Positions 5,332 through 64,000 of a DNA stretch of 64,000 nt are shown one piece after another. Source of the stretch: an uncultured virus (IMG/VR IMGVR_UViG_3300037067_024288). Lineage: Duplodnaviria; Heunggongvirae; Uroviricota; Caudoviricetes. The notes beneath the pieces are model-generated. The model was not told the origin of the DNA. It saw only the letters and a list, made by a program, of their open reading frames with translations, and did no database searches. The DNA lies in the IMG/VR virus record IMGVR_UViG_3300037067_024288. One strand, given 5' to 3'. A program made the position numbers and the translations under genes. Positions within the stretch are counted from its first letter, which is position 1. Every line of letters starts with the position of its first letter.

Positions 5332-5575
5332 CATAGCTACGAGGCATGAATCGCGAGGTTCATCGTAAGAATTGATTAGAGGGCTTAAAAATTAAATTTT
5401 ATGCAGAAGTTAGAACAAAGAAATACATACACACCTACGGATGCTCCACAAGTCCGTAGCAACTGTGACCTGCCATTAAACAGAGAGGAAACTCTCAGTG
5501 TGGCAAGTTTAAAAACGTGTTCTAACAACCTCGAAGTGGATCAACGGCTCACGAATAGCCGGGACTTACAGTCAT
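5316..5575 (+). ncRNA. IscB omegaRNA scaffold (guide = flank immediately upstream of 5316)
   Basis: Structured region between element end and the PLMP codons; boundaries approximate. Confidence 0.7.
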
Positions 5576-6750
5576 TAGTATTCGTATTAAATGTTGAAGG
5601 TCAACCGCTTATGCCTACTAAACCTGCTCGTGCAAGAAAAATGGTTGAAAATGGAAAAGCTAAAATCGTGAAACTTTACCCGTTCACAATTAAACTAAAT
5701 TTTGAGTGTGAAAATAAGGTGCAAAATGTGACTTTGGGAATTGATACGGGTTACAAAAACATTGGGTTTTCATGTGTTACAGAGGTTAAAGAACTTATTT
5801 CCGGGACTATTATTTTGGATGGAAGAACGTCAAGTAGATTGACTGAAAAATCAATGTACCGCCGTGTCCGTAGAAATCGCCACCGTTGGTACAGGGAACC
5901 ACGATTTTTAAACAGGGCAAAGCCGGAAGGTTGGCTTCCCCCGTCAGTTCAACGTAGGTATGATACCCATTTGAGCCTGATCAACCGGATGAAAGCTATT
6001 CTACCAGTATCCCAGGTTATCATTGAAGTTGCAAATTTTGATATTCAGAAAATTGAAAATCCTGAAATATTCGGAGAGCAGTATCAGCAAGGCGATTTAT
6101 TCGACTATCAGAATATGCGTTCATATTTAATGACTCGTGAAAAAGGTAAATGCCAGTTATGTAGTAAAGAATTCAGTAGGGGTAATCCCAGCCATATACA
6201 CCATTGTAAACAACGTAGCGAAGCCGGATCGAACCGGGCAAAAAACCTAGCATTGCTTCATAAAAAATGCCATACAAAGCTTCATAAAAAAGGCTTGAAA
6301 CTGAAATCTACAAAGCAGTACAAGCCAAGCACCTTCATGTCAATAATTCACAAAAGATTCTGGCAGGATATTCCGGGATTGAAAGTCACCTATGGTTATA
6401 TTACCTTTTTAAAACGGCAGGAAAACAATATTCCGAAATCTCATAACAATGATGCCTTTGTAATCGCTAAAGGAACTGATCAGGAAAGGTGCAAACCCGT
6501 AACTATTCAGCAAAAACATCGGAATAACCGGGCAATACAAATGAACAGAAAGGGATTCAAACCTTCAATTCGCAAACAGAGATATAATATTCAACCATTT
6601 GATATTGTTTGGATTATGGGAAAAAAACATATTGCATCCGGGATACAAAACAAAGGAAGATATTTATTGGTAAAGGGAATTAAAAGCCCTATATCAGTAA
6701 AAAATATTGAAAATCATTATAAATTCGGATCATTAGCATGGGCAATTTAA
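5401..6750 (+). CDS. iscB: IscB RNA-guided endonuclease (true start probably near 5575)
   Basis: PLMP, RuvC-I GIDTG, Arg-rich bridge helix, RuvC-II IEVANFD, HNH with CxxC, RuvC-III SHNNDA. Confidence 0.95.
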   Translation: MQKLEQRNTYTPTDAPQVRSNCDLPLNREETLSVASLKTCSNNLEVDQRLTNSRDLQSLVFVLNVEGQPLMPTKPARARKMVENGKAKIVKLYPFTIKLNFECENKVQNVTLGIDTGYKNIGFSCVTEVKELISGTIILDGRTSSRLTEKSMYRRVRRNRHRWYREPRFLNRAKPEGWLPPSVQRRYDTHLSLINRMKAILPVSQVIIEVANFDIQKIENPEIFGEQYQQGDLFDYQNMRSYLMTREKGKCQLCSKEFSRGNPSHIHHCKQRSEAGSNRAKNLALLHKKCHTKLHKKGLKLKSTKQYKPSTFMSIIHKRFWQDIPGLKVTYGYITFLKRQENNIPKSHNNDAFVIAKGTDQERCKPVTIQQKHRNNRAIQMNRKGFKPSIRKQRYNIQPFDIVWIMGKKHIASGIQNKGRYLLVKGIKSPISVKNIENHYKFGSLAWAI

Positions 6751-19411: not shown

Positions 19412-20461
19412 TTACCAGTTTAAAAGTAATCTTCCTAAAATGCCTAATCCAAAAGTATCTGAAGATAATTCCTTTTGAGCAGATTGTAATTCCGAATCTT
19501 TTGTTTCGGCAGGTTCTTCCTCTGCATTTTCTCCCCCAGACATATCCCCTACGCCTCCAATTGAACCACCGCCGCCAACACTTCCTCCTGAACTTGTTTG
19601 AGTAGGTTCTTCTTCAGATATGTCACTTCCTCTGCTACCTGAACTTTCTCTCGAACTTATTTCAGCAGGTTCTTCTTCAATTTCTTCACTTTTTTTTGAT
19701 CTCTCTACATTAACTTCTATATTCTCTTTCTGAGGTTTTTCAGCATAAGGATCTGTTTGAGTTGGAGAAGGCATCATAACAGGAGAGGAAATTGGTTCAT
19801 CTTCTATTTGTTCAGGCTGAGTTTGTCTTGGTTCTGGCATTTGCACAGGCATTTCATCTTCATAAACATTCTGTTGAATGTCTTGTGCTTCCTGTTCATC
19901 GTATTGCTGTTGTTCATCTTGTTCTACTTCTTGCCTGTTTTGTTCCTCTTCAGCAGCCTTTTCCTGTCTATCTTTTTCCATAGCAAGTCTTTCGGCTTCT
20001 TTTTGCTTAAGATCGGCTTCCGCCGCTGCTTTTGCTCTTTTTATTTCAGCAACTTTTTTAGCGGCTGCGGCTTTATCGGCAGCAGCTTTCTGATCAGCAG
20101 CTTTTTTAGCGGCTGCGGCTTTATCGGCAGCAGCTTTCTGATCAGCAGCTTTTTTAGCGGCTGCGGCTTTATCGGCAGCAGCTTTCTGATCAGCAGCTTT
20201 TTTAGCGGCTGCGGCTTTATCGGCAGCAGCTTTTTTAACAGCAGCAACTTGCTTTGATCCAAAAATAGGGTTAGAAGTAGTTTGTTTTGTAGTACTTGGT
20301 TTAGTTACTACTTTCGCAGCAACTACAGCAGGTTTTGAAATAGTTTTGACGGCAGCTTTTATAACAGCTTTTGGTTTAGAAACAGCTTTAATAACTTTTT
20401 TTAATCCACCAGCTTCTAAGTACCCATCGGCTGATAATCCTTGTAATTCATCGAAGTTCAT
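19412..20461 (-). CDS. Ala/Lys-repeat then acidic low-complexity protein
   Basis: AADKAAAAKKAADQK repeats; acidic C-half. Confidence 0.6.
   Translation of the reverse strand: MNFDELQGLSADGYLEAGGLKKVIKAVSKPKAVIKAAVKTISKPAVVAAKVVTKPSTTKQTTSNPIFGSKQVAAVKKAAADKAAAAKKAADQKAAADKAAAAKKAADQKAAADKAAAAKKAADQKAAADKAAAAKKVAEIKRAKAAAEADLKQKEAERLAMEKDRQEKAAEEEQNRQEVEQDEQQQYDEQEAQDIQQNVYEDEMPVQMPEPRQTQPEQIEDEPISSPVMMPSPTQTDPYAEKPQKENIEVNVERSKKSEEIEEEPAEISSRESSGSRGSDISEEEPTQTSSGGSVGGGGSIGGVGDMSGGENAEEEPAETKDSELQSAQKELSSDTFGLGILGRLLLNW
20055..20236. repeat. 45-bp tandem repeat, about 4 copies, coding
   Basis: ttttttagcggctgcggctttatcggcagcagctt recurs every 45 bp. Confidence 0.9.
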
Positions 20462-32986: not shown

Positions 32987-34093
32987 ATGAACTCAAAGGC
33001 TGTAATAGGCTTAGGATTTGGGGACGAAGGGAAAGGTATAACAACTGATTACCTTTGTTCTCATTCTGAAAATCCATTAGTAATAAGATTTTCTGGTGGA
33101 CAACAAGCTGGACATACTGTTGTATTAGATGAAAAAAGGCATGTATTCTCAAATTTCGGCTCAGGAACATTGCGTGGAATTTCTTCATATTGGGCTAAAT
33201 ATTGTACGGTTGAGCCTATTGGTTTAACAAATGAATTAAATAGTTTGATAAAAAGAGGAATAAGCCCAACGTTATTTATTGACGAACGATGCCCGGTAAC
33301 TACCCCCTATGATATTTTTAGTAACCAGAAAACAGAAGAAAGCAACCAACACGGGAGCTGTGGGGTTGGAATAGGGACAACAATAAATAGAGAGGAAAAT
33401 TACTATTCATTACTTTTTGGGGATTTATTTTATCCTTCCGTTTTATCAATTAAACTAAATGCTATAAAACAATTTTATGGATTTAAAGAATCAATTGTTT
33501 TAGATAGATTTTACGAATGTGTTGAACAGATTTTAAATTGCAAAAACATAAAACCTACATATAACTTCCCTTCTGGATTTGATAATATTATATTTGAAGG
33601 TTCTCAGGGACTTTTATTAGACAAAAATATAGGATTTTTCCCAAATGTTACAAGGGCAAATACTGGAAGTAAAAATATTTTAGATGCTGGATTTAAACCT
33701 GAATTATTTTTAATTACAAGAGCTTACCAGACAAGACATGGTAACGGACAAATGACAAACGAAAGTATTCCGAACAATATATTTTTAGACGCAAACGAAA
33801 CTAATATTTACAATAAATATCAAGGCAATTTTAGACGTTCATTGCTTGATTTAGACCTTTTACTATATGGAATGAATAAGGACGAATATATTAGGAATAA
33901 TGAAAATAAAGCCTTAGTTATTACCTGCCTTGACCATGTATGTGATGAGCATAGATTTACTTATAAAGGAGAAATTATATATTGCTCAAATGAGAATGAA
34001 TTTATTGCAAAAATTGGGAGCATCCTGAAAATTAAAGACATTTACATAAGCAATACAAACGAATCAAAAAATATAATAAAATGGGAAAAGTAA
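32987..34093 (+). CDS. Adenylosuccinate synthetase-like protein
   Basis: GFGDEGKG, RFSGG.QAGHTV, FEGSQGLLLD, TRAYQTRHG.G. Confidence 0.88.
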   Translation: MNSKAVIGLGFGDEGKGITTDYLCSHSENPLVIRFSGGQQAGHTVVLDEKRHVFSNFGSGTLRGISSYWAKYCTVEPIGLTNELNSLIKRGISPTLFIDERCPVTTPYDIFSNQKTEESNQHGSCGVGIGTTINREENYYSLLFGDLFYPSVLSIKLNAIKQFYGFKESIVLDRFYECVEQILNCKNIKPTYNFPSGFDNIIFEGSQGLLLDKNIGFFPNVTRANTGSKNILDAGFKPELFLITRAYQTRHGNGQMTNESIPNNIFLDANETNIYNKYQGNFRRSLLDLDLLLYGMNKDEYIRNNENKALVITCLDHVCDEHRFTYKGEIIYCSNENEFIAKIGSILKIKDIYISNTNESKNIIKWEK

Positions 34094-35093: not shown

Positions 35094-35903
35094 ATGAATA
35101 ACTTGAAGTATGTTTCTTTACTTAAAGATGAAATGTCTTTAAAAAATTATAGTAAAAATTCCATAAAGTCTTATTGTGGGTGCATATCTGTATTTTTTAA
35201 TTTTTTTGTAAAAAAAGACATGCCGGAACATATATCAGTTGAAGAAATTAAGAAATATTTACTTACAATTTCACCATCTTATCGGAAGCAAATGATTGGC
35301 AGTCTGTCAATATTTTATAAATTAATAGGACAACCTAAAAAATTTGATCACATAGAATATCCAAGAAAAGAGAATCATTTTCCAATTATTTTAAGTAAAG
35401 ATGAAATTAAAAAAATTCTTAAAAACACAGTTAATTTAAAGCATAAAATTATTTTATCAACAATTTATTTTCACGGATTACGAATATCTGAATTGATTAA
35501 TTTAAAAATAACAGATATAGATTTTAGTAGAAATCTTTTAATAATACAACAATCTAAAGGTAATAAAGACCGTGTAGTTCCAATAAATAAAGATTGGATT
35601 ATTGTTGTTAATAGATATATTTCTATTTATAAACCAATAGAATTTTTAATAAATGGACAGTTATCTCCACAATATTCGGCAACATCAATCAGAAATATTC
35701 TTAATAATAGTTGCAAAATTTCAGGAATAAATAAAAGTATTAAAATTCACTCATTAAGGCACTCTTATGCCACACACCTATTAGAACAAGGAGTTTCTCT
35801 TAGATATATTCAGAATTTACTTGGACACGAAAATAGCCGGACCACCGAACGTTATACACATGTCAGTAATATCCATTTACAAAATATCCAAATACAATTA
35901 TAA
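35094..35903 (+). CDS. Tyrosine recombinase (integron-integrase-like, no IntI insertion)
   Basis: SAM-like N-terminus; GLRISE, KGNKDR, HSLRH, LGH, TERYTH catalytic motifs. Confidence 0.92.
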   Translation: MNNLKYVSLLKDEMSLKNYSKNSIKSYCGCISVFFNFFVKKDMPEHISVEEIKKYLLTISPSYRKQMIGSLSIFYKLIGQPKKFDHIEYPRKENHFPIILSKDEIKKILKNTVNLKHKIILSTIYFHGLRISELINLKITDIDFSRNLLIIQQSKGNKDRVVPINKDWIIVVNRYISIYKPIEFLINGQLSPQYSATSIRNILNNSCKISGINKSIKIHSLRHSYATHLLEQGVSLRYIQNLLGHENSRTTERYTHVSNIHLQNIQIQL

Positions 35904-40551: not shown

Positions 40552-42750
40552 ATGGCTAAAAATTTAATTCGTAGAAATACCGGATATAAAGGAATGGCTA
40601 AATTAGGTAAATCAGGCGTGGTTAAATCGTTACCTATTACTCAATCATTTGAAAATATAAATATTAATAATAAATTTGTAGAACAAATAATAAATCAAGA
40701 TTATGACATTTCAGGAATTAGCAATAGTATCGAAGCAAGCTCTATCAAATCAGTTGCCAGTTTCATACAAAGAAGCTATTCAACAAGTAAAAGACTTGAA
40801 AATCCAGAGCAACAAAGGAATAAAGAAGCTAAAGAATTAAAAATATTTATTACCGAAAACAACTTATGGTTTGATGATTCAGTTCTTAAAAATTATCTGG
40901 ATGAAGGAGCTGAACAAAAAGTCTACTACATAGATAATAATGTAATTAAACTGAATGATGCCGGGTTCTATTCTAGTTGGGTTGATTATTTTGTGAGTTT
41001 ATTACTTCATAATTATTATTTTCCTCAAACAAAATATAAGATAGTTGGATTCTTAGAAAATGACAATAAATTATATTTGGTAGTAAAACAAAACTACGTT
41101 AAAAAAACAACTGAAACGGATTTATCAGAAGTTAAAGAATTTATGTCCGAAAACGGGTTTGTTAACACGAGAAATAATGATTACATAAATAAAGAAATAG
41201 GAATAATATTGGAAGATTTGCACGAAGAAAATGTACTAACAAAAGATGGTATTTTATATTTTATAGATACCGTTTTTTATTATAAAGAAAAATCATATTC
41301 AGATATGGAAATCAGTAATTTAGAATTAGCCAAAGGATCAGTCCACGAAGAAGAACATCGGGAAACCCTTGAAAAAGTCGCTTCTGGTGAAATCTCAGTT
41401 GATGAAGCTATTACACAGACCGCCAAAACTCATATTGTCGATGATCCTAACTATTATGAAAAATTGGAAGAAATGGAAAATAAAACATTAAAACTCTCTG
41501 ATATTCCTAATTCTGTTAAACAATTCATGCCGGAATTCCAACAGAAACTTATTATTGGCTCAGTTGAACATTGGGATATATTAAAAAGATTGGAGAGTAT
41601 TATTGATTCTATGCCAAAAGTTTACGGTACTGATAATATTAAATCTGAAGATAAGATTATTCAGCTTCATTATTTTTATGGTAGTTCCGATTGGTATATA
41701 GTAGAGAAAGATAGTGAAGTTGAACAATTACAAGCTTATGGATATGCTGTTTTAAATGGGGATTATGAAATGGCAGAATGGGGATATATTAATTTAGAAG
41801 AAATAAAATCTTCAGGTAAAATTGAACTTGACTTTTTCTGGGATCCCAAAAAATTTTCAGAATTGGAGTTTAATAAAACAGAAGAAAATCCTATTTCCAA
41901 AGAAGCGCAGATCATTATTAAACCTGAATTCAATAAAATGAAAGAATTCATTGAACAAACCGAAAAAGAGATTAAACCTGTATCTACATTGATCGGCCAA
42001 GATAAAATAAATTCTGAAATTCGCATACTTCTTAAATCAAAAGGACTCAACCGTTATCTTTATACTAAATCTGACTTTAATTTACTCTCTCAATATACTG
42101 GCGACAGCAAAACACAGGAAGAAAAATCAGATGGTTATCTTTGGGATTATTTCACCCCGGACGAAGCTGTTAAACTTTGTTGGCAATTAGCATATAAATA
42201 TGGATTCAGGGCAACAGAAAGTAAAAGAATTTGTGAACCCGCTTCAGGTTCCGGGAGATTCCTTCGCTATGCACCGGACTATTGTCAGGTTACGGCTTAT
42301 GAGATTGACGAAACATCTTATATGATTTGCAAACTCCTTTATCCTAATTTCAATATAATAAATAAAAGCTTTGAAAGTGCTTTTTATGTTGAATCCGGGC
42401 TTCGTGGGATAGCTTACAAACCAGTTTACGATACTTATAATCTGGTTATCGGCAATCCTCCATACATGTACCCTTATACCTCTGTTTATAAGGATAAAGA
42501 GAAAATAGTTTATCCTTTTATTCAAAGTTTAGAACAGCTCTTTATAATAAGGGGTGTTGATTCACTTGAAAAAAATGGACTGCTTATTTATATAATCCCC
42601 GCTTCGATAATTGATAATAATTCAAGTTATCAGGAGTTTAAAGATGCATTATTTAAAAAATGTGTAATGTTAGATGCCATTCGATTACCTTCGGGTACAT
42701 TTAAAGGTACTGATATTACGACCGATATAATTGTGGTTCAAAAACGCTAA
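40552..42750 (+). CDS. Polyvalent protein: kinase-like + DUF2958-like + N6-adenine MTase
   Basis: GAEQKVY/DLHEENV/FID; HYFYGSSDWYIVE..EWGYI..ELDFFW; YFTP, EPASGSG, NPPY. Confidence 0.75.
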   Translation: MAKNLIRRNTGYKGMAKLGKSGVVKSLPITQSFENININNKFVEQIINQDYDISGISNSIEASSIKSVASFIQRSYSTSKRLENPEQQRNKEAKELKIFITENNLWFDDSVLKNYLDEGAEQKVYYIDNNVIKLNDAGFYSSWVDYFVSLLLHNYYFPQTKYKIVGFLENDNKLYLVVKQNYVKKTTETDLSEVKEFMSENGFVNTRNNDYINKEIGIILEDLHEENVLTKDGILYFIDTVFYYKEKSYSDMEISNLELAKGSVHEEEHRETLEKVASGEISVDEAITQTAKTHIVDDPNYYEKLEEMENKTLKLSDIPNSVKQFMPEFQQKLIIGSVEHWDILKRLESIIDSMPKVYGTDNIKSEDKIIQLHYFYGSSDWYIVEKDSEVEQLQAYGYAVLNGDYEMAEWGYINLEEIKSSGKIELDFFWDPKKFSELEFNKTEENPISKEAQIIIKPEFNKMKEFIEQTEKEIKPVSTLIGQDKINSEIRILLKSKGLNRYLYTKSDFNLLSQYTGDSKTQEEKSDGYLWDYFTPDEAVKLCWQLAYKYGFRATESKRICEPASGSGRFLRYAPDYCQVTAYEIDETSYMICKLLYPNFNIINKSFESAFYVESGLRGIAYKPVYDTYNLVIGNPPYMYPYTSVYKDKEKIVYPFIQSLEQLFIIRGVDSLEKNGLLIYIIPASIIDNNSSYQEFKDALFKKCVMLDAIRLPSGTFKGTDITTDIIVVQKR

Positions 42751-42959
42751 TCATCATGGAAAATTTACTTAGAGAAAAAATCACAGAATTTCTGATCGGA
42801 TTAGATCGGGATGAATTCATTAACATTACCAATATGATGTCAAATGAAACAGGAAAACAACGTATTATTGATACTGTCATTGACAAAGTACTTAAAGATA
42901 AATTAAAAATTGAAGATGCAGTAACAGACATTGAATTATCACTTTATCAATAGCCAATT

Positions 42960-45900
42960 ATGGAAACGAAAACCGCTGCCTTAGAGAATATCTTATTGAT
43001 TGCCAAGAATAGTCGGGATATTGTTGATTTTTCAACAAAACTTTTCAAATACGCTCAAGAAAGCGAAGATTCTGAACTTTGGCAACAAATAATGTTCATA
43101 TACAAACAGTTGATGGAATATAACGTTAAGTTAGTTACCAATCCGTCACCAGGAGTTTATGATATTGTCGGAGGCGGGGATATTAAAGATTATTTACAAG
43201 ATATTGATAAGGCTTTATCTGGATCGGCTGGATTTTATACATCCAAACTGAATATGATGTTTCTTAGTTCAAATGCTGAAGATATTGAAATAACTGCTCT
43301 AAAATGGGATGGAATTGATGCTTACATGCTTAAACAAAATTTCATGTTAGCCTTTATTGCAATATATGCCCATGAAAGCATACATGCAATACTTAATAAT
43401 CAGAATATCCCAAATAATCCAGATATTTATGAAGTTAATGCTTTAAAAAACCTCATCTCAAAAGCTGCAAAAATTAATAACTTGGACTATTTAAAGATCA
43501 TTGATGCAAACTGGCAAGAAATGATTTGTCACATTGTTTCAGGTAAAAAGTATTACAACTACATTATTGACAATAACTTATCATTTGAACTTTCAAAAGT
43601 CATATCCAAAACAGTTCTTGATGAGACTATAAGAGTAACTTTAATCGGTTTTATTAATTCATGGACCAAGTTATTCTTTAATGTCACAACTGATATAGTT
43701 TACGATATACCAGATTATTCAAACAAGAAAAATTTCCTTTCAAGAAACTTCTTTTCTGATAACCCTCAAAAAATTTTGGGATCTGAAATTGAAACCACAA
43801 ATCGTTGGGGAAAATTTGTTTACAAAACAAAACGGTTTGAAAAAGATCATTCTATTGACGATATTTTAGGGCATGTTAAAGATTTGCCGGCAATTGACTT
43901 TAGTTCATTTGACAACCTCGCAAAAGTTGATCAATATGATACTTCTTTTGAGGTTGAGCAAGCCATTGAATCAATAACCCAATCCATTGAAAAGCAAAAA
44001 TTACAGCCAAAAGAAGATGTTACCAATGATCTTATTTCATTTGCCGATTCTGTAAGGATTTATAATACTGAAGGTGAGTTCGCTCATCTTACCTGGTTGG
44101 AAATCGAAGCTTACCTTTATTGTAACCCTGGCGAAAACAAACTTATTTGGCGGGAAAACCTTGAATATTCCGAAACCGATATACTTGGTTCAATGTCCAA
44201 AATCACGCTGAATAAGCAAATGGATAATGAATGTGAGATTGAAATCCCGACAGTAATATTCGATGGCGAAAATAATTACTTTGCTACATTTTTACATGGT
44301 GACGTTTATCAAAAAACCCAGAATATTAAGTCTAATAAGGATTTAATAATTGAGTCTAGGGGCGAAAATTATTATAATAAACTCATGGCCGGACTTGATA
44401 GTATCCGGTTTGTAAGTGTATCATTTGATAATGAAGAATTTTCAAAAAGGCCATTTGTAAGCCCTGTTTCAACAACATCTCAGGAGTTTTATATCAATTC
44501 ATTTGTTGGCGATAGCCGAAATAATAAAGGCGAAATAACATTAATAGAAGCATTTCTATATTGTATTGGCAGCCGTGAATCTGCATGGTATAAAGCAAGC
44601 CGTTACGGTGGAGTGATACCAAGTGATATTTATAAGGTAATGAGAGGACAGAGATTGATCGAACGCCCTCACCGGGGCAAAGATTTAACTGGTCCTGAAA
44701 AAGCAGCCAATGATGAAGCGGATAATCGCAATGCCATAAAATTTGACAATATATTTGAACAAACCTGTATTTGTTTCTCAGACTTCATCCGTGAATGTAT
44801 TGATGAAGAAAGCAAAAAAAGACTTGAAGAAGATATTTCCGGGTTCTATAATAAATTCTGCTTTACAGAACTTGAAAAAATACCAGTTGGGTTTACTCAT
44901 TCGAGTAGATTTAAGAGATCGAAATTCAGGCTTAAATCTATTCAGAGAAATAGTATTGCTTTTGTAAATATTAGTAAATCCGGTTTACTTGCACACGAGA
45001 TTGGTACAGGCAAGACAACTTCCTCATTATCAGCTATTTCCAACGCTTTTGATACAGGTAGGGCAAATAAAGCATTAGTAGTTGTTCCTACTACTGTTTA
45101 TGAAAAATGGATAAACGAATGTCAGAATCACACTGAAAAAATTATTGATTCAGTTACCGGAGAAGAAAAAGTTATCCAATTATATGGCATGTTACCTCAT
45201 CTTAACATAGTAGGATTGAGCAATTTGTCAAATAAGGTATTGATGGAATTAAAAGAATATTCCGGTGATGAAAAGAAACGGATTGAAAAAGCTAAATCCG
45301 GCTATTTTGAATTTTATGATAAACTTAAAAAAGCCATTAAAGATATTGACGTGACTGATGAAGAACCGGACGAAGATAACGAAGTTCTTGATGGTGTCGA
45401 AGAACAAAGGGAAGCCAAAAAGTCAACTCTTAAAATATTACTTCCGACAAACTATTCCGGTTCGATTGAATTTCTTAATAATATTTTGAAGCTTGTAGAT
45501 ATTGAGGTTTTAAGTGGGTTTGGGATTACCAATGCTGAGAATAAAAATTATAATGCCCTTTATTCTATACTCTCATCTCAATTTCAAAATAGCACATTAT
45601 CCTTTGTGATCAAGCAATTATATATTGAAGCTATTCCAAAGATTGAAAAAATCCGTTATTTTTATGAGATACCTGAATATGTTCATGTTTCGGTTATTTT
45701 ATCGTACATAGTTGATAATTACAAGAAACTTGAAAGCCATTTAATCGCTTCATTGGGTACATTCCGGGAATTCCCTGATAAGACTATATTCTTTACTTCT
45801 TATACAGGACTTGCCAGACTTGGATTTAAAGATGATACAATTCAATTAATGTCTCAAAGGCTTTTAGAAATACTGAAAGGTTCTGATTTAGAAGGTGCGG

Positions 45901-48900
45901 ACCAAGCTAAGATTGAAAAGAATATCGAAAGTTTACTTCTTAAATCTGAACTTGAAGCAAAAGTTTATTTTGAAGACTTAGGATTTGATTATATTGTGAT
46001 CGATGAAGCTCACAGATTGAAAAATCTTATTACCAGCATTACGGCCAAAGAGGGTACAAATGATCTTTACCCTGGCAACAAATCTCAGATCAAAACTATT
46101 AAAGGCGGATCTCAAAGTAAAGCTGCACTTACCGGATTTATGAGTACAATGTATATTCAGATGAAAAATGGAGGCCGGAATACCTTATTATTAACAGCTA
46201 CCCCATTTACAAATAGTCCTCTGGAAATTTACTCAATGCTTTGTTTGACAAGTTATAACTATCTTAAAAGCATGGGTTATGACGATGTTCTGAAATTCGC
46301 CCAGGATTTTATTAAAATCAAATCTCAATTATCAATCTCAGTTGAGGGTACTGTTAAGACAAAGATTGAACCGGTTGGTTATACTAACCTTCAGTTACTT
46401 CGTAGGATCATTTATACTATTATTGACTTTCGGTCTGCCGAAGAATCAAGTATTGTCAGACCATGTAAGATTGTACTTCCGATCCGGGAAAAATCTACTT
46501 TGTGTGATTCCAGAAAGTCACACGGTTTTAGCGTTATTCGCCCGGTTTCAACTATTGTTATTCCTACCAGACAGCAACAATTTATATTTGATGCACTTCA
46601 GGTTTACCTTTCAAGCCAACTGAATAATAAAACAGTTGACGATGTGTTTATGAAATATATTCTCAAAAAAGGCGAAGAATATTATAAGAGGGTTTCTTTT
46701 AGTGATTCAGGACTTGACTATAATGAGTACATGCAAAGTGTAGGTTCATTGGCTAATCTTATACAAGATAAATTCAATATCACAAGAACCGGTGAATATG
46801 TTGATAAATTATTCCCGGCAGTTGCCATATTGAAAACTCTTATGGCCATGAGAAATGTAAGTATAAGCCCATATATGTTCCGACCATACGTCACCGATTA
46901 TTTAGGAATAACAGATCAGGATATTGACCCTTATCAAGTAATCGAACAATCCTCAAAATTGATGTATGTTACTGCCTGTATTAAGAAGGTAAACTCTTTT
47001 CAAAAATCAGTCGGTAAAGATTTGAAAGGGATTGTTATTTACTCGAATTTAGGCACGCGACCAGGTAAGAATTCACCTGTTTCACTCCTTAAAATTCTTA
47101 AACAATATTTACTTGACGAGTCTAAAGGCTTCGGTTACAGCTCAAACAGTATTGAATATGAAGGTTTCCGTAAGAAATTCGATCAGGTAGAAATACTTGA
47201 CGGTACTACCGCTGCCGATCCTAAAAAGAAAAATGCTTTAATGAACCTATTTAATAAAGGTGAAATTAAAGTAATAATAACAACAATCCGGGAAGGGGTG
47301 GACCTCAATGGAGATACAATCGCTTTATTCAACCTTTCTGTTGACTGGAACCCTACCGATGCTAAACAGATTGAAGGCCGGGCATGGAGACAAGGGAATA
47401 AAAACGCATATTGCATGATGATTTACCCGCTTACTGCCAATGGTAGTGATATGGCCATTTATCAGAAATTACAAGATAAAACATATCGATTAAAAGCACT
47501 ATGGGATAAATCTTCAACTTTAAAAAGTGCGTTCGATCTGGATGAATTCGATCCTGAAGAATTAAAAATGCAAATGATTAGCAGGGTTGAAAAATTGGCT
47601 CCGTTCAAGTTTAATGAAGAAACAACGGCCAAAAGGTACGAATATGACATGCTCAAATCTAAAAAAACAGAGGACGAGCAAGTTATAAACAATTACAATA
47701 ATTTTCAGGCAAAAGAAATGCAGTTGCGATATGCAATGATGCTTTATTCGAGGCTTCCTAAGATACTGGAACGCGAAAATAAAATCCGCGAGATCCAGAA
47801 TAATATTGATAGTTCTGAACGGGCGGTAAAACAATATGAAAGGACTATTCAGGAAGAAAAATATAATATTTCGGAATATCAGGATTTACAAACACTCATT
47901 AATAACATAGCCAGCAAAACAACTGAGAAAAAAATGAAAGCTGGGGAATATGGAATAGCCCTTTCAGATGATCAAACAAGTGAGGCAGCTGCTTTGAAAA
48001 AAGAAATTGATTTATTAAATGTTGAGATTAAAAAGTTAGAAGCTGAAAAGCCAAAACTTGAAAAAGAAGTTGATAAAAAGGCTGCTGAATCCATTAAAGA
48101 GTTTGAAAAGGAACTTTCTAAAGAACAAAAAGAACTGGCCAAGCTTAAAAAGTCAATTGAAGGATATCAGACAGATCCTATTTTTATTAATGATACAAAA
48201 GAGTTAGAATTCAACCCAGATGATCAAGTCAGAGGTAATTATTTTATAAAATCTGAGACAGGGGGGGTAATCTATAAAGACAAAGGATTATCACTTGATA
48301 AAATCGATTGGTTGAAGGCTACTATTTATGATTTAATGGAAGGATTGACAAGGATTGTAGAAATGTACACCAATATTAATTCAATGTTTAGTGTGGCATT
48401 TTCCGAATATCGTAGTGAAACCATTGATTTAACTGATATAAATAATAGGTATTCAATACTTCCAATAGAATATTTTAATCAATTTGTCGATTATACCGGT
48501 GCTTATAATGGTGAAAGTATTTATGTCCGAACTATTTTAAATCTTGTCAGGGATTTTAATTCTCGTGGCTATACTAAAGAATACTGGAACTTATTCTATG
48601 CAGCACAATTAAAAGTATCTATTTTACGGTCACTTCGAGATTATGCTTCAATTCTTGAAGGTCAGGACCCGGATAAATATCTCAATGACTTGGATGAAAA
48701 GCTTAATTTACTTTACCAGGAAATCGGAGCAACTGAAAACATGCTCGAAATACCAGAATCAGTACTTGAAAAGTATATTGAGAAAGCTTACGAAGAAATT
48801 TCTAAAAGGCGTAAAGAATATTCAAGTTATATTAATTTAGTAGATGGTTTTGCCGGGTTCTCTGACTTATTCAATATAGAGCTTGAAAGTGTATTTATTA

Positions 48901-49118
48901 ACAATAATATCACAAAAGAACTGGCAGAAGAAGCCACTATTCAATTAACCGAAGAAGTGGTAAGCCAAAATGAAGCCAAAGAAATTATTCAGGCTTATTC
49001 TGATAAGATCGAAGTTTATCGTGAAATGGTCTTAGAAATAGAATCTGAAACCGATAAACAGGCTTTCCTTGATAAGATTGAAGTGTATGAGGAAATGATG
49101 CAAGAAATTCAAAAATAA
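42960..49118 (+). CDS. Large SNF2-family helicase (DarB-like) with N-terminal HEXXH zincin domain
   Basis: HESIH; HEIGTGKT, DEAH, TATP, EGVDL, QIEGRAWRQG. Confidence 0.85.
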   Translation: METKTAALENILLIAKNSRDIVDFSTKLFKYAQESEDSELWQQIMFIYKQLMEYNVKLVTNPSPGVYDIVGGGDIKDYLQDIDKALSGSAGFYTSKLNMMFLSSNAEDIEITALKWDGIDAYMLKQNFMLAFIAIYAHESIHAILNNQNIPNNPDIYEVNALKNLISKAAKINNLDYLKIIDANWQEMICHIVSGKKYYNYIIDNNLSFELSKVISKTVLDETIRVTLIGFINSWTKLFFNVTTDIVYDIPDYSNKKNFLSRNFFSDNPQKILGSEIETTNRWGKFVYKTKRFEKDHSIDDILGHVKDLPAIDFSSFDNLAKVDQYDTSFEVEQAIESITQSIEKQKLQPKEDVTNDLISFADSVRIYNTEGEFAHLTWLEIEAYLYCNPGENKLIWRENLEYSETDILGSMSKITLNKQMDNECEIEIPTVIFDGENNYFATFLHGDVYQKTQNIKSNKDLIIESRGENYYNKLMAGLDSIRFVSVSFDNEEFSKRPFVSPVSTTSQEFYINSFVGDSRNNKGEITLIEAFLYCIGSRESAWYKASRYGGVIPSDIYKVMRGQRLIERPHRGKDLTGPEKAANDEADNRNAIKFDNIFEQTCICFSDFIRECIDEESKKRLEEDISGFYNKFCFTELEKIPVGFTHSSRFKRSKFRLKSIQRNSIAFVNISKSGLLAHEIGTGKTTSSLSAISNAFDTGRANKALVVVPTTVYEKWINECQNHTEKIIDSVTGEEKVIQLYGMLPHLNIVGLSNLSNKVLMELKEYSGDEKKRIEKAKSGYFEFYDKLKKAIKDIDVTDEEPDEDNEVLDGVEEQREAKKSTLKILLPTNYSGSIEFLNNILKLVDIEVLSGFGITNAENKNYNALYSILSSQFQNSTLSFVIKQLYIEAIPKIEKIRYFYEIPEYVHVSVILSYIVDNYKKLESHLIASLGTFREFPDKTIFFTSYTGLARLGFKDDTIQLMSQRLLEILKGSDLEGADQAKIEKNIESLLLKSELEAKVYFEDLGFDYIVIDEAHRLKNLITSITAKEGTNDLYPGNKSQIKTIKGGSQSKAALTGFMSTMYIQMKNGGRNTLLLTATPFTNSPLEIYSMLCLTSYNYLKSMGYDDVLKFAQDFIKIKSQLSISVEGTVKTKIEPVGYTNLQLLRRIIYTIIDFRSAEESSIVRPCKIVLPIREKSTLCDSRKSHGFSVIRPVSTIVIPTRQQQFIFDALQVYLSSQLNNKTVDDVFMKYILKKGEEYYKRVSFSDSGLDYNEYMQSVGSLANLIQDKFNITRTGEYVDKLFPAVAILKTLMAMRNVSISPYMFRPYVTDYLGITDQDIDPYQVIEQSSKLMYVTACIKKVNSFQKSVGKDLKGIVIYSNLGTRPGKNSPVSLLKILKQYLLDESKGFGYSSNSIEYEGFRKKFDQVEILDGTTAADPKKKNALMNLFNKGEIKVIITTIREGVDLNGDTIALFNLSVDWNPTDAKQIEGRAWRQGNKNAYCMMIYPLTANGSDMAIYQKLQDKTYRLKALWDKSSTLKSAFDLDEFDPEELKMQMISRVEKLAPFKFNEETTAKRYEYDMLKSKKTEDEQVINNYNNFQAKEMQLRYAMMLYSRLPKILERENKIREIQNNIDSSERAVKQYERTIQEEKYNISEYQDLQTLINNIASKTTEKKMKAGEYGIALSDDQTSEAAALKKEIDLLNVEIKKLEAEKPKLEKEVDKKAAESIKEFEKELSKEQKELAKLKKSIEGYQTDPIFINDTKELEFNPDDQVRGNYFIKSETGGVIYKDKGLSLDKIDWLKATIYDLMEGLTRIVEMYTNINSMFSVAFSEYRSETIDLTDINNRYSILPIEYFNQFVDYTGAYNGESIYVRTILNLVRDFNSRGYTKEYWNLFYAAQLKVSILRSLRDYASILEGQDPDKYLNDLDEKLNLLYQEIGATENMLEIPESVLEKYIEKAYEEISKRRKEYSSYINLVDGFAGFSDLFNIELESVFINNNITKELAEEATIQLTEEVVSQNEAKEIIQAYSDKIEVYREMVLEIESETDKQAFLDKIEVYEEMMQEIQK

Positions 49119-52647: not shown

Positions 52648-52768
52648 TATCCATTGGTGTAATCTCTTTTGTATTGACTCTTTGGCCGCAACCAAAGAGG
52701 GGTTGAAATCCCGGAGAGAGTTGACAGCATACCGAAAGGAGGTCCCGGTTAAAGTCCGGGATGGGTTT
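52648..52768 (+). ncRNA. Unusual tRNA-like RNA with nested insertion and no anticodon loop
   Basis: Acceptor atccat/atgggt, T-arm cccgg-ttaaagt-ccggg, D-arm tggtgtaa..cagcat interrupted by a structured insert, cc-gaaa-gg in place of the anticodon arm. Confidence 0.45.
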
Positions 52769-52789
52769 TTAAAAGCTTTTTGAAGAAAT

Positions 52790-53053
52790 TAAGTTCATTG
52801 ACATGATTATTAAAGTGTTCTGGACGTCCGGGCGGAGCGGACCGGGTCCACCAATTTCGCCAATTGATGGCTTCTTTATAATTCTAGCCTAAACAAAAAA
52901 GAATTATAATATGGGCCCGAATTTAGTTTTGACAGGACATAAGTACGAATCATTGAGAACTTAATAACGCCATAAACGGCAAACAAATTGAAAGGAATGT
53001 GCCTCAGTTAAGAATTGCGGCATAATCAGCTCACCGGGGTGCTATATCCCCGG
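52790..53053 (+). ncRNA. ssrA: Circularly permuted (two-piece) tmRNA; tag (A)GKQIERNVPQLRIAA
   Basis: 3' piece cgggtccACCA ends 52853; 5' piece gggcccg starts 52913 giving G3.U70; gtgttctg/caggacat helix; tag 52978-53025 ends in AA-stop. Confidence 0.85.
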
Positions 53054-53057
53054 ACAT

Positions 53058-53130
53058 TGCAGGTTATGGAAGTGGTCATCCGCTTGGTCTCATAAACCGA
53101 GAATCAGTAGTTCGAATCTACTACCTGCTA
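53058..53130 (+). tRNA. tRNA-Met(CAT), 1:72 mismatch (initiator-like)
   Basis: gcaggt/acctgc acceptor, ttggt-ctCATaa-accga, agtag-ttcgaat-ctact. Confidence 0.85.
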
Positions 53131-53188
53131 CAAGGAATCAGCACCCATGTCACATACGTAGTGACCTTTTTTGCTGCATAGTTGAAGA

Positions 53189-59737: not shown

Positions 59738-60489
59738 TGCGAAAAATATTTATTACATATTGCGATTACCCTTTGGGACATTTGCGAAGGGAAATCTATG
59801 AGAAATACACAAAGCCAAGATTTATAGCTTATTGTGATAAGCATGGTTTTGAATTTATTCCTATTATGGAAAATATCGCTACTCCGCGAAATTTAGGCTT
59901 TGCAAAAGTATTTTGGATAAAACAGAATATGGCAAACTTGGCCGATGGTGATGTAATTACCTACATGGATATTGATTGTTGCATTATGGATGGTAGGGTT
60001 TCGGCAATATTTGATGCAGATTTTTCTATTGTCAGGGAATCTACCGGATGTCTTTGCATGGGTGGTACATGGAGTGTAAAAATTTCAGATTGGAGTCGTA
60101 AGTTTATCGAAGAAATGTGTTCTGAAGAAAGACATCAAAAAAGTTGTCATTTAGGATCATGGAACGTCTGGCATGAAAATGATGCTGTTTATCACGTTCT
60201 TGGCCTTAATTGGGGACAGGAAATGACTGAAATGGGAACCAGAGATACGACTCCTTTTACCAAAGAAGAAATATTTAAGCATGTTAAAATATTGCCGGTA
60301 GAATGGGGAGTTACCTATAATCCAAATGATACAAATAACCCACCCAATTATTATAAAACAATCGCTCAATATTTTAGACCTGAAAATTATCGATCTATTG
60401 ATGATACTATTGTACGGCATTTATCTGCCAGTTCTATGTTGGAAGATTGGGCAGAAGAAAAATATTTTAAAATACCTATGAAAATATGA
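59737..60489 (+). CDS. GT34-like glycosyltransferase
   Basis: AYCDKHG, AKV.WI, YMDID, W.E. Confidence 0.65.
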   Translation: MRKIFITYCDYPLGHLRREIYEKYTKPRFIAYCDKHGFEFIPIMENIATPRNLGFAKVFWIKQNMANLADGDVITYMDIDCCIMDGRVSAIFDADFSIVRESTGCLCMGGTWSVKISDWSRKFIEEMCSEERHQKSCHLGSWNVWHENDAVYHVLGLNWGQEMTEMGTRDTTPFTKEEIFKHVKILPVEWGVTYNPNDTNNPPNYYKTIAQYFRPENYRSIDDTIVRHLSASSMLEDWAEEKYFKIPMKI

Positions 60490-61196
60490 TGAATGATCCC
60501 CGTAGAATAAGTGTTGTTTGCCCTTATTTTAATAGGAGTGATAAGATTATGGATATGCTTGAGCCATTACTTCCAGATAACCGTATTGATCAGATCGTTC
60601 TTTGTGATGATAGAAGCCCAGACGATGATTTCTATAAATTAATTGACATCGTAAAAGACTTCAAAAAAGTAGTTGTTTACCGGAATGTTATCAATTTATA
60701 TATTCAACAAAACAAAAGAACGGCCATATCTTTTTCTAAAAATGATTTTTTGGCTGTTGTAGATAATGATAACCGCATGGATAAGGATTTCTTTGATAAG
60801 ATTTTTGCTATTCCAGATTGGCAACCTAATATCCTTTATTCACCGGCCTTTGGGTTTCCAAATTTCAATTATTGTCATTTAAACGGACAAACCATTACAA
60901 AACAAAATATCTCATCATATACAGGAGATAAATCAATAATAACATTTTGCAATTTAAATAATTATTTTGTCAATCGAAACCAATTCCTGAACACTTATAT
61001 TCATGATGATAATGTAAGGGGTGCGGATGGTCTCGCAACATATTTTAATTGGCTAAAAGCAGGTAATTCAATATATGTAGTCCCGGACCTTACTTATCAG
61101 CATAGAATAAGTCCTGATTCAGTATTTCTTTCTGAGACTGATTCAAATATGCAGAAAGTTTATTTGTGGTTTGAGAAATTGAAAGAACTGAAATAG
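60486..61196 (+). CDS. GT2 glycosyltransferase
   Basis: ISVVCPYFNR, DDRS, VDND. Confidence 0.85.
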   Translation: MMNDPRRISVVCPYFNRSDKIMDMLEPLLPDNRIDQIVLCDDRSPDDDFYKLIDIVKDFKKVVVYRNVINLYIQQNKRTAISFSKNDFLAVVDNDNRMDKDFFDKIFAIPDWQPNILYSPAFGFPNFNYCHLNGQTITKQNISSYTGDKSIITFCNLNNYFVNRNQFLNTYIHDDNVRGADGLATYFNWLKAGNSIYVVPDLTYQHRISPDSVFLSETDSNMQKVYLWFEKLKELK

Positions 61197-61462
61197 TTAC
61201 GAAATAGCTAATATTTTTGACTAAAAGTTTTGCATATATCTCATAAATTACTAATATTGAGTATCTAAAATAATTAAGCCGTGAGAATCAAACCTTTAAA
61301 TAATAAATTAGCATTTTGGCTATTTGTAATACTTACTATCATTGATATTGGCATAGTAATTTTTCATCCATTGATGTTTATAGGAAAAATTTTTATTGGG
61401 GCAAGCTTAGCTCTCTCAGTTGTCAATATCCCTTTGTTGTGGAAATATAAATTCTAAAAAAA

Positions 61463-61912
61463 ATGAAAACTTTATTAATTTCAATCCTGATTTTTATTTC
61501 ATTTGAAATATTCTCTCAAAGTTCATCATCTATAATAATTAGCCCTGAAGATGTCGGTATTGGTCCATTGGGTTCTTATAAATTTGGTAAATCAATTGTG
61601 TCAGCCGGGGTATCCTACGGAAATTATTATAATACTTCATTCTTACGCGATCATTGGAAAACATATACTTCCTATGGTTATTTTTTTGGGGATCATTCAT
61701 ACCTTTTAGTTGATATTCATTATAACCAGTTTAACATTATTAGGGAAGTTCCATCTTGGTTTAATGAAAAAGCACTAACCAAATGGACTTATTCAATAGG
61801 AGGGGGGATCATTCTTGATCAATTTCATTCTACACTTCAAGTTGATCTTATACAGCATATTGGAACGGTCAGTTTTGGCTATTATTTTGGCAGGGATTTA
61901 ATTTATAAATAA
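61463..61912 (+). CDS. Small outer-membrane beta-barrel-like protein
   Basis: Signal peptide, alternating aromatic strands, terminal FGYYF. Confidence 0.45.
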   Translation: MKTLLISILIFISFEIFSQSSSSIIISPEDVGIGPLGSYKFGKSIVSAGVSYGNYYNTSFLRDHWKTYTSYGYFFGDHSYLLVDIHYNQFNIIREVPSWFNEKALTKWTYSIGGGIILDQFHSTLQVDLIQHIGTVSFGYYFGRDLIYK

Positions 61913-62107
61913 CCGTGCATAAAACAGTTGTAGATTATGATTAAGAATGTATGTAAAAACGGGAAAAGCGAGTTGCATTTGTTAATTAATATTAATGAAA
62001 AATGAGTCTGCAACATCCATTAGTAGGAATAGCATTAACCTTACTTGTATTAGTAATTATAGGCTTTACAGAGCATAGAAAGGCTAAGAAACAAGCAAAA
62101 AAAATGA

Positions 62108-62482
62108 ATGATGGTAAATCAAAGAATAACTGATCTCAGGAAAGTTATTAATATCCCAAATCATTTTAATCCAGGCATATTAGGGATACTTATTTATGAA
62201 CCATATATGCGAAAACAATATTATATGGATTCATTGAAATACTTTACCAATATTGAGATTAAGCAAGCAATTGTTTTTACCGATAATCCTACAATAGCTA
62301 AAAAATATCTGTGTTACTCAATAATTGAATCTAATAATACAATTGATGAGTTTTTAAAGATTTGCATGTGTGAACATCTGATTATTGATAAGTCTCAATA
62401 TGCTTATTTAGCAGCTATTCTCAATCCAAATAAAGATAAAATTATTGTCCATCCGGGCGATATTGATTTAATAATCACTTAA
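62108..62482 (+). CDS. Degenerate GT11 C-terminal fragment
   Basis: VFTDN, CEHLII..S.YAY.AA.L. Confidence 0.55.
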   Translation: MMVNQRITDLRKVINIPNHFNPGILGILIYEPYMRKQYYMDSLKYFTNIEIKQAIVFTDNPTIAKKYLCYSIIESNNTIDEFLKICMCEHLIIDKSQYAYLAAILNPNKDKIIVHPGDIDLIIT

Positions 62483-62492
62483 ATTTTTAATT

Positions 62493-62759
62493 ATGACAAA
62501 AGCAGAATTAGTAGCTAGTATAGCTGCAAAAACAGGAAAAACAAAGATTGAAGCAGAACAATTTATTGAAGCATTTCAATCTGTAGTAAAAGAAAACATC
62601 AGTGCCGGGATTACCATTCGTGGTTTTGGTACATTTTTACTTAAAGATCGTGCCGCTAAACCTGCGAGAAATATCAAGACAGGAGAAACTATTCAAATTC
62701 CAGCTCATAAGGCTCCTCTGTTAAAATTCGCAAAGGAATTCAAAGAAGAAGTTCGATAA
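62493..62759 (+). CDS. hup: HU histone-like DNA-binding protein
   Basis: MTKAEL, GFGTF, RAAK.ARN.KTGE.IQIPA. Confidence 0.95.
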   Translation: MTKAELVASIAAKTGKTKIEAEQFIEAFQSVVKENISAGITIRGFGTFLLKDRAAKPARNIKTGETIQIPAHKAPLLKFAKEFKEEVR

Positions 62760-62792
62760 GTCGCGCCCTGTATTGGGTGTGTGGATTGAAAC
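62760..62792 (+). CRISPR. Solitary type I-C-like CRISPR repeat (no array)
   Basis: GTCGCGCCCTGTATTGGGTGTGTGGATTGAAAC: GTCGC start, internal hairpin, ATTGAAAC end. Confidence 0.75.
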
Positions 62793-62833
62793 GATAATAA
62801 GTAGGTAGATTGTTGTTGATTTTCCTTTTGTGA

Positions 62834-62864
62834 GGACCGGGGATTTACTTCCCGGTCTTTTTTA
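62834..62864 (+). terminator. Intrinsic terminator after HU and the solitary repeat
   Basis: gaccggg..cccggtc then T-run. Confidence 0.8.
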
Positions 62865-63104
62865 TTGCATAGGAAATTTCATATTCAATTATTTAGTTGA
62901 ATCGATTGAATGCAAAAAATTTGTAGTTCATCGTTCTATAAATCATACAATTACAAATTAATAAAAATATCAGAAATTGATCAGAAAAAGAACTATCTTT
63001 GAATCCTAATTGGTTATCAATCCAAACTACAACACCAAAAAGAAAAAGCCCCAAGACTTGTTTCTGCAAACAATCTGGGGCTTTTCGATTTAAACCTGTT
63101 AATA

Positions 63105-63986
63105 TTAATGATTATCGGGATTCTGGGCGTAGCTCTCTTTAATATCATTAATCCCTTCTTTTGATTCCTGTTTGATCCCAAATAATTCATCTACTGATAT
63201 CTCTGAATCCGCTATCTGATTTATGAGACTGATCATTTCAATAATATCAAATTTATTGAATAGAAAAATGTCCTTTTTGAAGTATTCAGAAATTTTCGTG
63301 TCTGAAATGCCATAGGATGCAAAAACTTGAATCAACTCATCTCGCTTAGAAATTAATTTTTCTGTTGTGCTTATGTCCCCAGTTAAAATATCCGATGCCG
63401 TTTTAAGAAGGGTATCGATTAAAGAGGCTGGAACAATAGAAAGAATGGCTTTTCGCGTAGCTTTAGCAGTGGCAAAATTTCCAGCTTCAATAATCATTTG
63501 ATCAAAACTTTTAGTCTTATCTGCATTGTAAATTGCCTGTACACCTTCCGATTTTATGATAAGCATTGACTCTAAATCTATGATTACGCAATCAGATGTT
63601 ATAAATTGTCTCCTTTGTTCTCTCACCCGACTTTCTATCCTGAGATTATGATATGACTGTGAAATTAATTTTGCCAGGTAAATAGTAGGGATCATTACCT
63701 TTTCATTACCTGGATCATTTATGATATAAAAACATTTTGAAGCCGTATTAATATCAATACCCGCTAGGCAATTATCAGTTACAACCTGTAAATTTCTGGG
63801 GTATTTCCGGGCCACGTCAACCGATGTCATCATTTGTAAACTTGCCTCTTGCTCTGGAATTAGTTTAGGAGGTAAACTTTTTACACTCTTTTTTATAGAG
63901 TCCCGTGTAAATTTCTTCATGTCTTGCATATCAATCGTATTTAGAAGGTTCATTTCAACACTCAACAAAACCATACTATTTACCAA
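63105..63986 (-). CDS. Phage hypothetical protein
   Basis: Long ORF; A.KYPRN, RKAIL..VP. Confidence 0.5.
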   Translation of the reverse strand: MVNSMVLLSVEMNLLNTIDMQDMKKFTRDSIKKSVKSLPPKLIPEQEASLQMMTSVDVARKYPRNLQVVTDNCLAGIDINTASKCFYIINDPGNEKVMIPTIYLAKLISQSYHNLRIESRVREQRRQFITSDCVIIDLESMLIIKSEGVQAIYNADKTKSFDQMIIEAGNFATAKATRKAILSIVPASLIDTLLKTASDILTGDISTTEKLISKRDELIQVFASYGISDTKISEYFKKDIFLFNKFDIIEMISLINQIADSEISVDELFGIKQESKEGINDIKESYAQNPDNH

Positions 63987-64000
63987 TACCCTCAGCTTTT

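Follow-up and report, generated by a model that had tools for sequence, protein, structure and literature searches.

A solitary type I-C CRISPR repeat of 33 nt abuts the gene for an HU-family DNA-binding protein on a phage-like element, and we tentatively read it as a competitive RNA anti-CRISPR of the Racr type that would form the 3′ part of the HU transcript. The stretch analyzed, referred to here as the window, is 64,000 nucleotides long. The repeat belongs to the already known solitary repeat units, or RNA anti-CRISPR candidates, and adds one more type I-C example, in a deeply novel phage-like element. Its identity, solitary state, sense orientation, co-linearity with HU and a terminator, and intact Cas5c determinants are directly observed.

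The repeat and its type I-C family

The repeat occupies positions 62760-62792 (+) and reads GTCGCGCCCTGTATTGGGTGTGTGGATTGAAAC. It starts at the base after the TAA stop codon (62757-62759) of the HU gene (62493-62759, +; 88 aa; PF00216, E 2e-25; phrog_379, E 1.6e-23), leaving a gap of 0 nt, and is in the sense orientation relative to HU transcription. The predicted folds contain a repeat hairpin at 62762-62781 (+), with a 7-bp stem (62762-62768 with 62775-62781) and a 6-nt loop. Two of the stem pairs are G-U (G4-U21 and G6-U19), and the first 23 nt of the repeat fold at a predicted -11.8 kcal/mol. By analogy to the biochemistry reported for Cas5c (PMC8524198), the cut is predicted between 62781 and 62782, and the predicted 11-nt crRNA 5′ handle, UGGAUUGAAAC, would span 62782-62792 (+); it is the same as the 3′ 11 nt that are invariant in 27/27 array repeats. 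Behind the repeat lies a tail, or pseudo-spacer, of 39 nt (62793-62831, +; 42 nt to the G-C core of the terminator stem), followed by a Rho-independent terminator (62832-62863, +) that consists of a hairpin at 62832-62860 (12 pairs, 6 of them G-C, loop of 5) and a T run to 62863. An earlier note on this DNA had described a single 33-nt type I-C-like repeat directly adjoining the HU stop codon, with a terminator some 40 nt further on, and the coordinates agree with this description in every element.

The region 62750-62880 as a whole has a predicted folding energy of -46.3 kcal/mol (z = -5.2). In this fold the last HU codons, UUCGAU (62752-62757), are paired with AUUGAA of the repeat handle (62785-62790). 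According to the folding model, such pairing could hinder recognition of the handle, which counts against the Racr reading; termination of translation at the abutting stop codon would open both the HU-handle helix and the repeat stem.

The window contains one copy of the repeat at up to three mismatches, and shuffled sequences give 0 matches in 100. Local alignment to the 130 nt on each side yields no second repeat, with scores no better than those of shuffles (p = 0.36 downstream, 0.87 upstream), and no CRISPR-like direct or spaced repeats are present anywhere in the window. None of the window's 87 ORFs of at least 60 aa matches a Cas family in Pfam. Alignment, spaced-repeat, covariance-model and Pfam searches therefore all uphold the earlier statement that the window holds neither a second repeat nor a cas gene, and the locus has one repeat only, not the two or more repeats with spacers that define a CRISPR array or a viral mini-array. 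Positions 61578-63166 are present with 0 differences in a contig from a sequencing run of another study (X2), so the repeat is not an assembly artefact of a single sample.

The subtype was assigned with a covariance model built from 27 distinct I-C array repeats, all from other organisms and with the window repeat excluded. The repeat scores 39.1 bits over model positions 1-33 of 33 (E ~2e-8 by a rough calibration), and the next-best match in the 64 kb reaches 12.2 bits (E 0.58). At gathering thresholds Rfam places no CRISPR family at the site; at a loose threshold CRISPR-DR9 matches at 15.8 bits, below its gathering score of 45. The repeat displays the hallmarks by which I-C repeats are recognized, namely 5′ GTCGC and 3′ GTGGATTGAAAC around a G-C-rich hairpin of 7-8 bp. 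Its 5′ 9 nt and 3′ 12 nt agree with columns that are invariant in the 27 array repeats, apart from G/A at position 6. The pattern GTCGCRCCC-N6-GGGYGYGTGGATTGAAAC occurs in regularly spaced arrays in at least 123 genome loci from many phyla, and also in IMG/VR. Arrays of this family adjoin Cas3, Cas_Cas5d, Cas_Csd1 (cas8c), Cas_Cas7, Cas4 and Cas1 in L083, L102 and L088, which are all (3/3) of the loci with a cas-side flank to inspect. Together with the covariance model, these cas-adjacent arrays now show the subtype that the earlier note had proposed from likeness. The cas genes lie on the strand of GTCGC...GAAAC; HU transcription would thus yield the repeat in sense.

Some features of the repeat set it apart from the array repeats. 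It has at least four mismatches to every sampled array repeat among the matches listed, the closest of these being a minor variant in L006 with four mismatches and the same GTAT loop. The identity to this variant is 29/33, or 87.9%, at full coverage among the matches listed, against a cut-off of 90% in SRUFinder (PMC10651486), and the figure rests on the sampled array repeats rather than on the 17,823-repeat database of that study. Relative to the L006 variant, C10T and G15T open the apical, loop-closing pair, and C19T and C21T convert two G-C pairs to G-U. No change touches the first 9 or the last 12 nt of the repeat, and all seven lower stem pairs are retained. The apical pair is non-Watson-Crick in 10/103 sampled array loci as well. 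G-U at the two wobble pairs is found in 0/103 of these loci, though the search pattern allowed it, and the G-U form of the repeat has no match in 185,579 species-representative genomes.

With two G-U pairs the stem is weaker, and a particular Cas5c might fail to recognize the repeat, which again speaks against the Racr reading. As reported, Cas5c needs the stem, the cut site, the UGG just behind the cut and the 3′ overhang, whereas the loop and the 5′ overhang can vary; cleavage yields an 11-nt 5′ handle, to which the enzyme stays bound in Cascade (PMC8524198). The parts that Cas5c reportedly reads (stem, UGG and 11-nt handle) are intact in the sequence of the window repeat. G-U pairs were also considered as a mark of function or of solitary repeats in general. 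This idea was dropped, as they are not clearly commoner in the solitary (25/63) than in the array repeats (7/29) of viral contigs, the difference being not significant.

The carrier element and its likely host

The HU gene closes a long run of genes on the + strand, and the gene that follows is convergent. The nearest HU relatives are 65-67% identical, followed by Bacteroidota-type HU/IHF proteins of 96 aa at 44-51%. In IMG/VR, HU relatives were found at 3 and 14 loci with no more than 50% identity, and those checked (L015-L017) have no repeat behind HU. There is no acr-like neighbor: a 124-aa ORF upstream gives only sub-threshold matches (DUF7695, E 0.0056; GT11, E 0.039). The downstream ORF of 293 aa has no relatives in IMG/VR, and blastn of positions 60000-64000 against 50,697 phage records returned no match. 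A metagenome scan returned only one contig (L018), which is identical to the window.

The window has a GC content of 33% and phage-like content that includes PHROG matches, a polyvalent protein, PBECR nucleases, RusA, a PurZ-like enzyme and lysis-type domains. We call the element phage-like because neither a capsid nor a terminase family was detected among the ORFs scanned. It encodes a tyrosine integrase (35094-35903). The polyvalent proteins are encoded at 40552-49118 (+) and comprise a 732-aa protein with kinase-PolyVal and N6 methylase domains, followed by a 2,052-aa SNF2/helicase protein. An adenylosuccinate-synthetase homologue (32987-34093, +) matches phrog_1211, a PurZ-type family, with E 1.3e-52; the match raises the possibility of 2-aminoadenine in place of adenine in the element's DNA. 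In a 349-aa ORF, tandem coding repeats of 15, 18 and 33 nt (19998-20285, -) are rich in GCN and AAR codons and hence in alanine and lysine.

Structured RNAs are also present. A HEARO RNA (RF02033, 108.8 bits) lies just before, and overlaps the start of, an IscB-type ORF of 449 aa with RRXRR and HNH domains in Pfam (5401-6750, +), the two together covering 5316-6750 (+). This ORF encodes the sole Cas-related protein in the window, and HEARO RNA plus IscB is an RNA-guided nuclease module on the same element that bears the repeat. At 52761-53131 (+), a permuted tmRNA (RF04321, 61.5 bits; ARAGORN tag GKQIERNVPQLRIAA) precedes a tRNA-Met.

A Shine-Dalgarno-like core precedes 5/87 ORFs, against a background of 6.8%. 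Since these cores are at background level and the HU/IHF relatives are of the type noted above, the host is likely one without Shine-Dalgarno sequences, such as a member of the Bacteroidota. The permuted tmRNA is unexpected if this is so, and regions upstream of genes show no enrichment of the Bacteroidota -7 promoter motif (5 occurrences in 4.2 kb versus 0.94 per kb overall). Among the matches listed, the I-C arrays of the repeat family are carried by genomes titled Bacteroidales, Prevotella, Porphyromonadaceae and Polaribacter, and 57/401 sampled genomes from the phylum of the Polaribacter-titled genome hold repeats of the I-C family.

Flanking duplication and rival explanations

The anatomy given in the earlier note stands, but a duplication at the flanks had been overlooked, as had the triplet ahead of it. 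GATAA is found directly before the repeat (62755-62759, +, taking in the HU stop codon) and again directly behind it (62793-62797, +). The upstream copy is preceded by TTC (62752-62754, +), which is reported as the type I-C PAM (PMC8406640) and may be the PAM of a pre-insertion target; the downstream copy has the AAC of the repeat ahead of it instead. Measured in the window, the chance of a 5-nt duplication across a 33-nt gap is 0.0018 per position (0.18%), and that of such a duplication with TTC ahead is 6.3e-5 per position (0.006%). The simplest reading of these sequences suggests a 38-nt insertion (repeat plus GATAA) into ...GTTC|GATAATAAG..., and the GATAA copies together with the TTC place this insertion at a former TTC-protospacer junction. 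The tail would then be the element's own former protospacer, now with AAC ahead of it.

A protospacer check of the downstream stretch gave no match in the searched loci, the window or IMG/VR: no target with a seed of at least 10 nt and TTC exists in 1.27 Mb of loci, including I-C operons of Bacteroidota and others, or in the window, and the tail sequence has no match in IMG/VR. Given the duplication and the TTC, the downstream ~35 nt seem to represent sequence of the element that was once a protospacer, rather than a spacer with some other target. Conversely, none of the 2,622 spacers of the array loci matches the window beyond 17 nt. The 17-nt match is that of an I-C array spacer on a viral contig (L014, 461-496) to the conserved start of HU (window 62493-62509). 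This spacer was rejected as a targeting element, since only 20/36 positions match overall.

Other lone repeats were compared. A flanking match of 2 nt or less is seen in 77/87 other lone units among the matches listed, so the signature is not general; duplications of at least 5 nt occur in 3/87 (3.4%), versus 1.2% in a permutation null, among the same matches. One IMG/VR contig (L265, ~583-650) has the same layout as the window, with TTC + TAAT | repeat | TAAT and the lone I-C repeat directly at an ORF stop. Its insert-free relatives were sought, and the search returned the same contig only. A further lone I-C repeat (L198/L276) is a 47-nt insertion that consists of a 32-nt repeat and a 15-nt duplication. 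Four contigs (L275, L277, L278 and L279) are without the 32-nt repeat and one 15-nt copy and are otherwise 100% identical (438 + 773 nt); the insertion is thus absent from 4/5 IMG/VR contigs. The triplet before this insertion site is TTT, not TTC. From this polymorphism it is clear that recent insertion with target duplication can give rise to lone I-C repeats, and by analogy the same origin becomes plausible for the window repeat. For the window's element, no insert-free relative was found in IMG/VR or the metagenome scan, and none of the sequencing-run contigs joins across the 38-nt skip, those of X3-X5 not reaching the repeat. Microhomology to an array leader was considered as the cause of the left junction and was rejected, as the leader ends of 52 arrays have no ATAA-like consensus.

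The duplication with TTC and the L198 polymorphism together supply a concrete origin for solitary repeats, that of capture at a targeted site. Within a limited literature search, neither this origin nor any description of target duplications at solitary repeats was found; the main text of PMC10651486 does not mention flanking duplications or PAM junctions (the word "duplication" occurs 0 times). Recombination between spacers and protospacers of arrays and phages is on record (Varble 2019, as cited in the review PMC8616872).

If the repeat was captured in this way, it could still be at work as a guide. It would then be a piece of a host I-C array, inserted exactly at the element's own TTC-protospacer junction with a 5-nt target duplication; removal of the PAM would have allowed escape, and placement in the HU 3′ UTR would have produced a crRNA with one repeat and a terminator cap, its tail serving as a full-length guide against insert-free siblings (TTC + GATAATAAG...). 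The carrier would be safe from its own guide because AAC, not TTC, stands before its full copy. Such a protein-free cassette would borrow the host I-C Cascade-Cas3 against competitors, serving competition between phages or its own selfish spread. We regard this as an unlikely account, and equally the extension that many viral solitary I-C repeats may arise likewise and not as purpose-built decoys. The flanking GATAA copies and TTC, with their low chance values, agree with it, as do the L198/L276 insertion that is missing from otherwise identical contigs, the matching layout of L265, the crRNA-like geometry of handle, 39-42 nt and hairpin, and the recorded recombination of spacers with protospacers. 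It is weakened by the failure of IMG/VR and the metagenome to return an insert-free relative, by the rarity of flanking duplications among other lone units, by the TTT in place of TTC at the L198 site and by the lack of a second repeat that would fix the 3′ end of the guide; moreover, the four substitutions relative to the sampled arrays argue against a recent capture. The same flank signature would also be left by an inert scar with no present function, stemming from an event in which the element recombined with a host I-C array or escaped it as the insertion moved the PAM off the protospacer. The distance of at least four mismatches from every sampled array repeat among the matches listed fits a scar, and all four differences from the L006 variant are changes to T, as drift in a genome of 33% GC predicts; neither a partner gene nor a target was found. 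Even so, none of the changes hits the 21 flanking positions or breaks one of the seven lower stem pairs, a placement with a probability of ~(25/99)^4 = 0.004 under uniform mutation and ~0.1 if only GC-to-AT transitions are considered, with the ancestor chosen post hoc. The exact 11-nt handle is also kept, at a site that would be a transcribed 3′ UTR, and we judge a functionless scar to be rather improbable.

Two further explanations have considerably less in their favor. In a Cracr-type regulatory guide, the tail would pair partially with the promoter of a host cas gene or of a CRISPR-guarding toxin, and the host Cascade would repress its own expression. Viral crRNA-like regulators are reported for type I-C (bioRxiv 10.1101/2024.10.29.618823), and the RNA geometry is crRNA-like here too. 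We nevertheless think this role very unlikely. Cracr RNAs are marked by a degenerate second repeat together with at least nine PAM-proximal matches in the promoter of a cas or toxin gene. Here no such repeat lies within 130 nt, and seeds of at least 10 nt next to a TTC PAM are absent from the 1.27 Mb of loci with their Bacteroidota I-C operons; the flank duplication also suggests that the tail is the element's own sequence. An attP-like site for integration of the element into a host CRISPR array seems more remote still and highly improbable. Array integration has been named as an alternative role of repeat-like sequences (PMC10651486), and the window does encode a tyrosine integrase. This enzyme is not adjacent to the repeat, as it is encoded 27 kb away, and in place of DNA identity to a host repeat core we find at least four mismatches to the sampled repeats among the matches listed. 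Two of the C-to-T changes keep RNA pairing and reduce DNA identity to array repeats, and the site falls inside a predicted transcription unit, where it separates the HU stop codon from the terminator.

Proposed mechanism and known systems

The Racr-type decoy that we tentatively prefer would work as follows. The HU mRNA would run on through the repeat to the terminator; co-transcription is implied by the 0-nt gap to the stop codon and by the + strand terminator 39 nt behind the repeat. Host Cas5c would cleave between 62781 and 62782, where the repeat hairpin ends on its 3′ side. The small RNA set free would be ~82 nt long, with an 11-nt 5′ handle, a 39-42-nt tail and a terminator hairpin as its cap. 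This product would have the layout of a crRNA, in which the terminator hairpin occupies the place of the next repeat's hairpin. Cas5c would keep the handle, Cas7 and Cas8c would assemble on the tail, and the resulting complexes would occupy host Cascade proteins without directing them against the element. Inference begins with transcription and extends to cleavage, Cascade loading and the benefit to the phage. The active product should be the handle with the downstream tail and not the upstream part, because Cas5c is reported to stay on the 5′ handle (PMC8524198).

The idea of a Racr decoy, put forward in the earlier note, fits the precedent of RacrIC1 (PMC10651486) and is plausible by analogy; its logic has to be amended in that the active product in type I-C should be the downstream rather than the upstream one. 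Since the type I-C processing enzyme keeps the downstream product, a lone repeat with a terminator would amount to a complete crRNA look-alike, making decoy and guide hard to separate. The two readings are compatible, as a guide-loaded Cascade without a target also competes.

Lone I-C repeats are common in viral contigs. Among the IMG/VR matches listed, 81 single matches have sufficient flanking sequence; 78 of them proved truly solitary, and in 21 of these 78 an ORF stop lies at most 15 nt ahead of the repeat. By eye, none of the upstream genes of 24 other gene-abutting lone repeats is HU-like. In one IMG/VR contig of 115 kb and 37% GC (L012), the 3′ end of a tRNA-like sequence is followed after ~13 nt by a lone I-C repeat.

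Solitary repeat units (SRUs) of viruses are reported to act as RNA anti-CRISPRs (Camara-Wilpert et al. 2023, PMC10651486). In the SRU table of that study "I-C" occurs 2,014 times, at two per row, so that there are apparently about a thousand I-C entries, and I-C appears to be the commonest subtype; for 83% of SRUs the host is reported to carry a matching subtype. To count as an SRU in SRUFinder, a sequence has to match a known repeat with identity and coverage of 90% or more each, be intergenic, have no full or partial repeat within 100 bp, and lie on a virus or plasmid (PMC10651486). The context of the window repeat corresponds to this definition: it lies between the HU stop and a terminator, has no neighboring repeat and is found on a phage-like contig.

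RacrIC1 is the closest counterpart. As described, it lies 11 nt behind an acrIC5 homologue, is bicistronic with acrIC5 and inhibits I-C interference, and a non-targeting crRNA likewise lowered interference (PMC10651486). Like RacrIC1 and other SRUs, the window repeat is a single I-C repeat mimic, carried by a mobile element that has neither cas genes nor an array. Both are placed directly behind a protein gene, at 11 nt from acrIC5 and 0 nt from HU, respectively, and co-transcription, reported for RacrIC1 with acrIC5, would apply to the window repeat with HU. They differ in that the upstream gene here belongs to the HU family and is not a known Acr, and in the two G-U stem pairs. With RacrIF1 the window repeat would share the competitive sequestration of Cascade subunits by a repeat mimic. 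In that type I-F case, however, the reported inhibitor is the upstream cleavage product, which lacks a handle and to which Cas6f and a Cas7f filament bind (PMC10651486), whereas the downstream tail of the I-C repeat should carry the proteins, by analogy to PMC8524198, and could form a complete guide-bearing complex.

Cracr RNAs (Liu et al., bioRxiv 10.1101/2024.10.29.618823), for which I-C examples are listed, resemble the candidate in being phage-borne and crRNA-like and in using host Cas proteins. They are described as having a pseudo-spacer that matches a host cas or toxin promoter and a degenerate second repeat, neither of which was found for the window repeat in the loci and flanks searched. 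Viral mini-CRISPR arrays are reported to be used in conflicts between viruses (PMC11656645, PMC8616872), and the tail, if it served as a guide, would likewise target close relatives of its carrier. Mini-arrays have at least two repeats around a spacer; the window has one, with a terminator hairpin in the place of the second.
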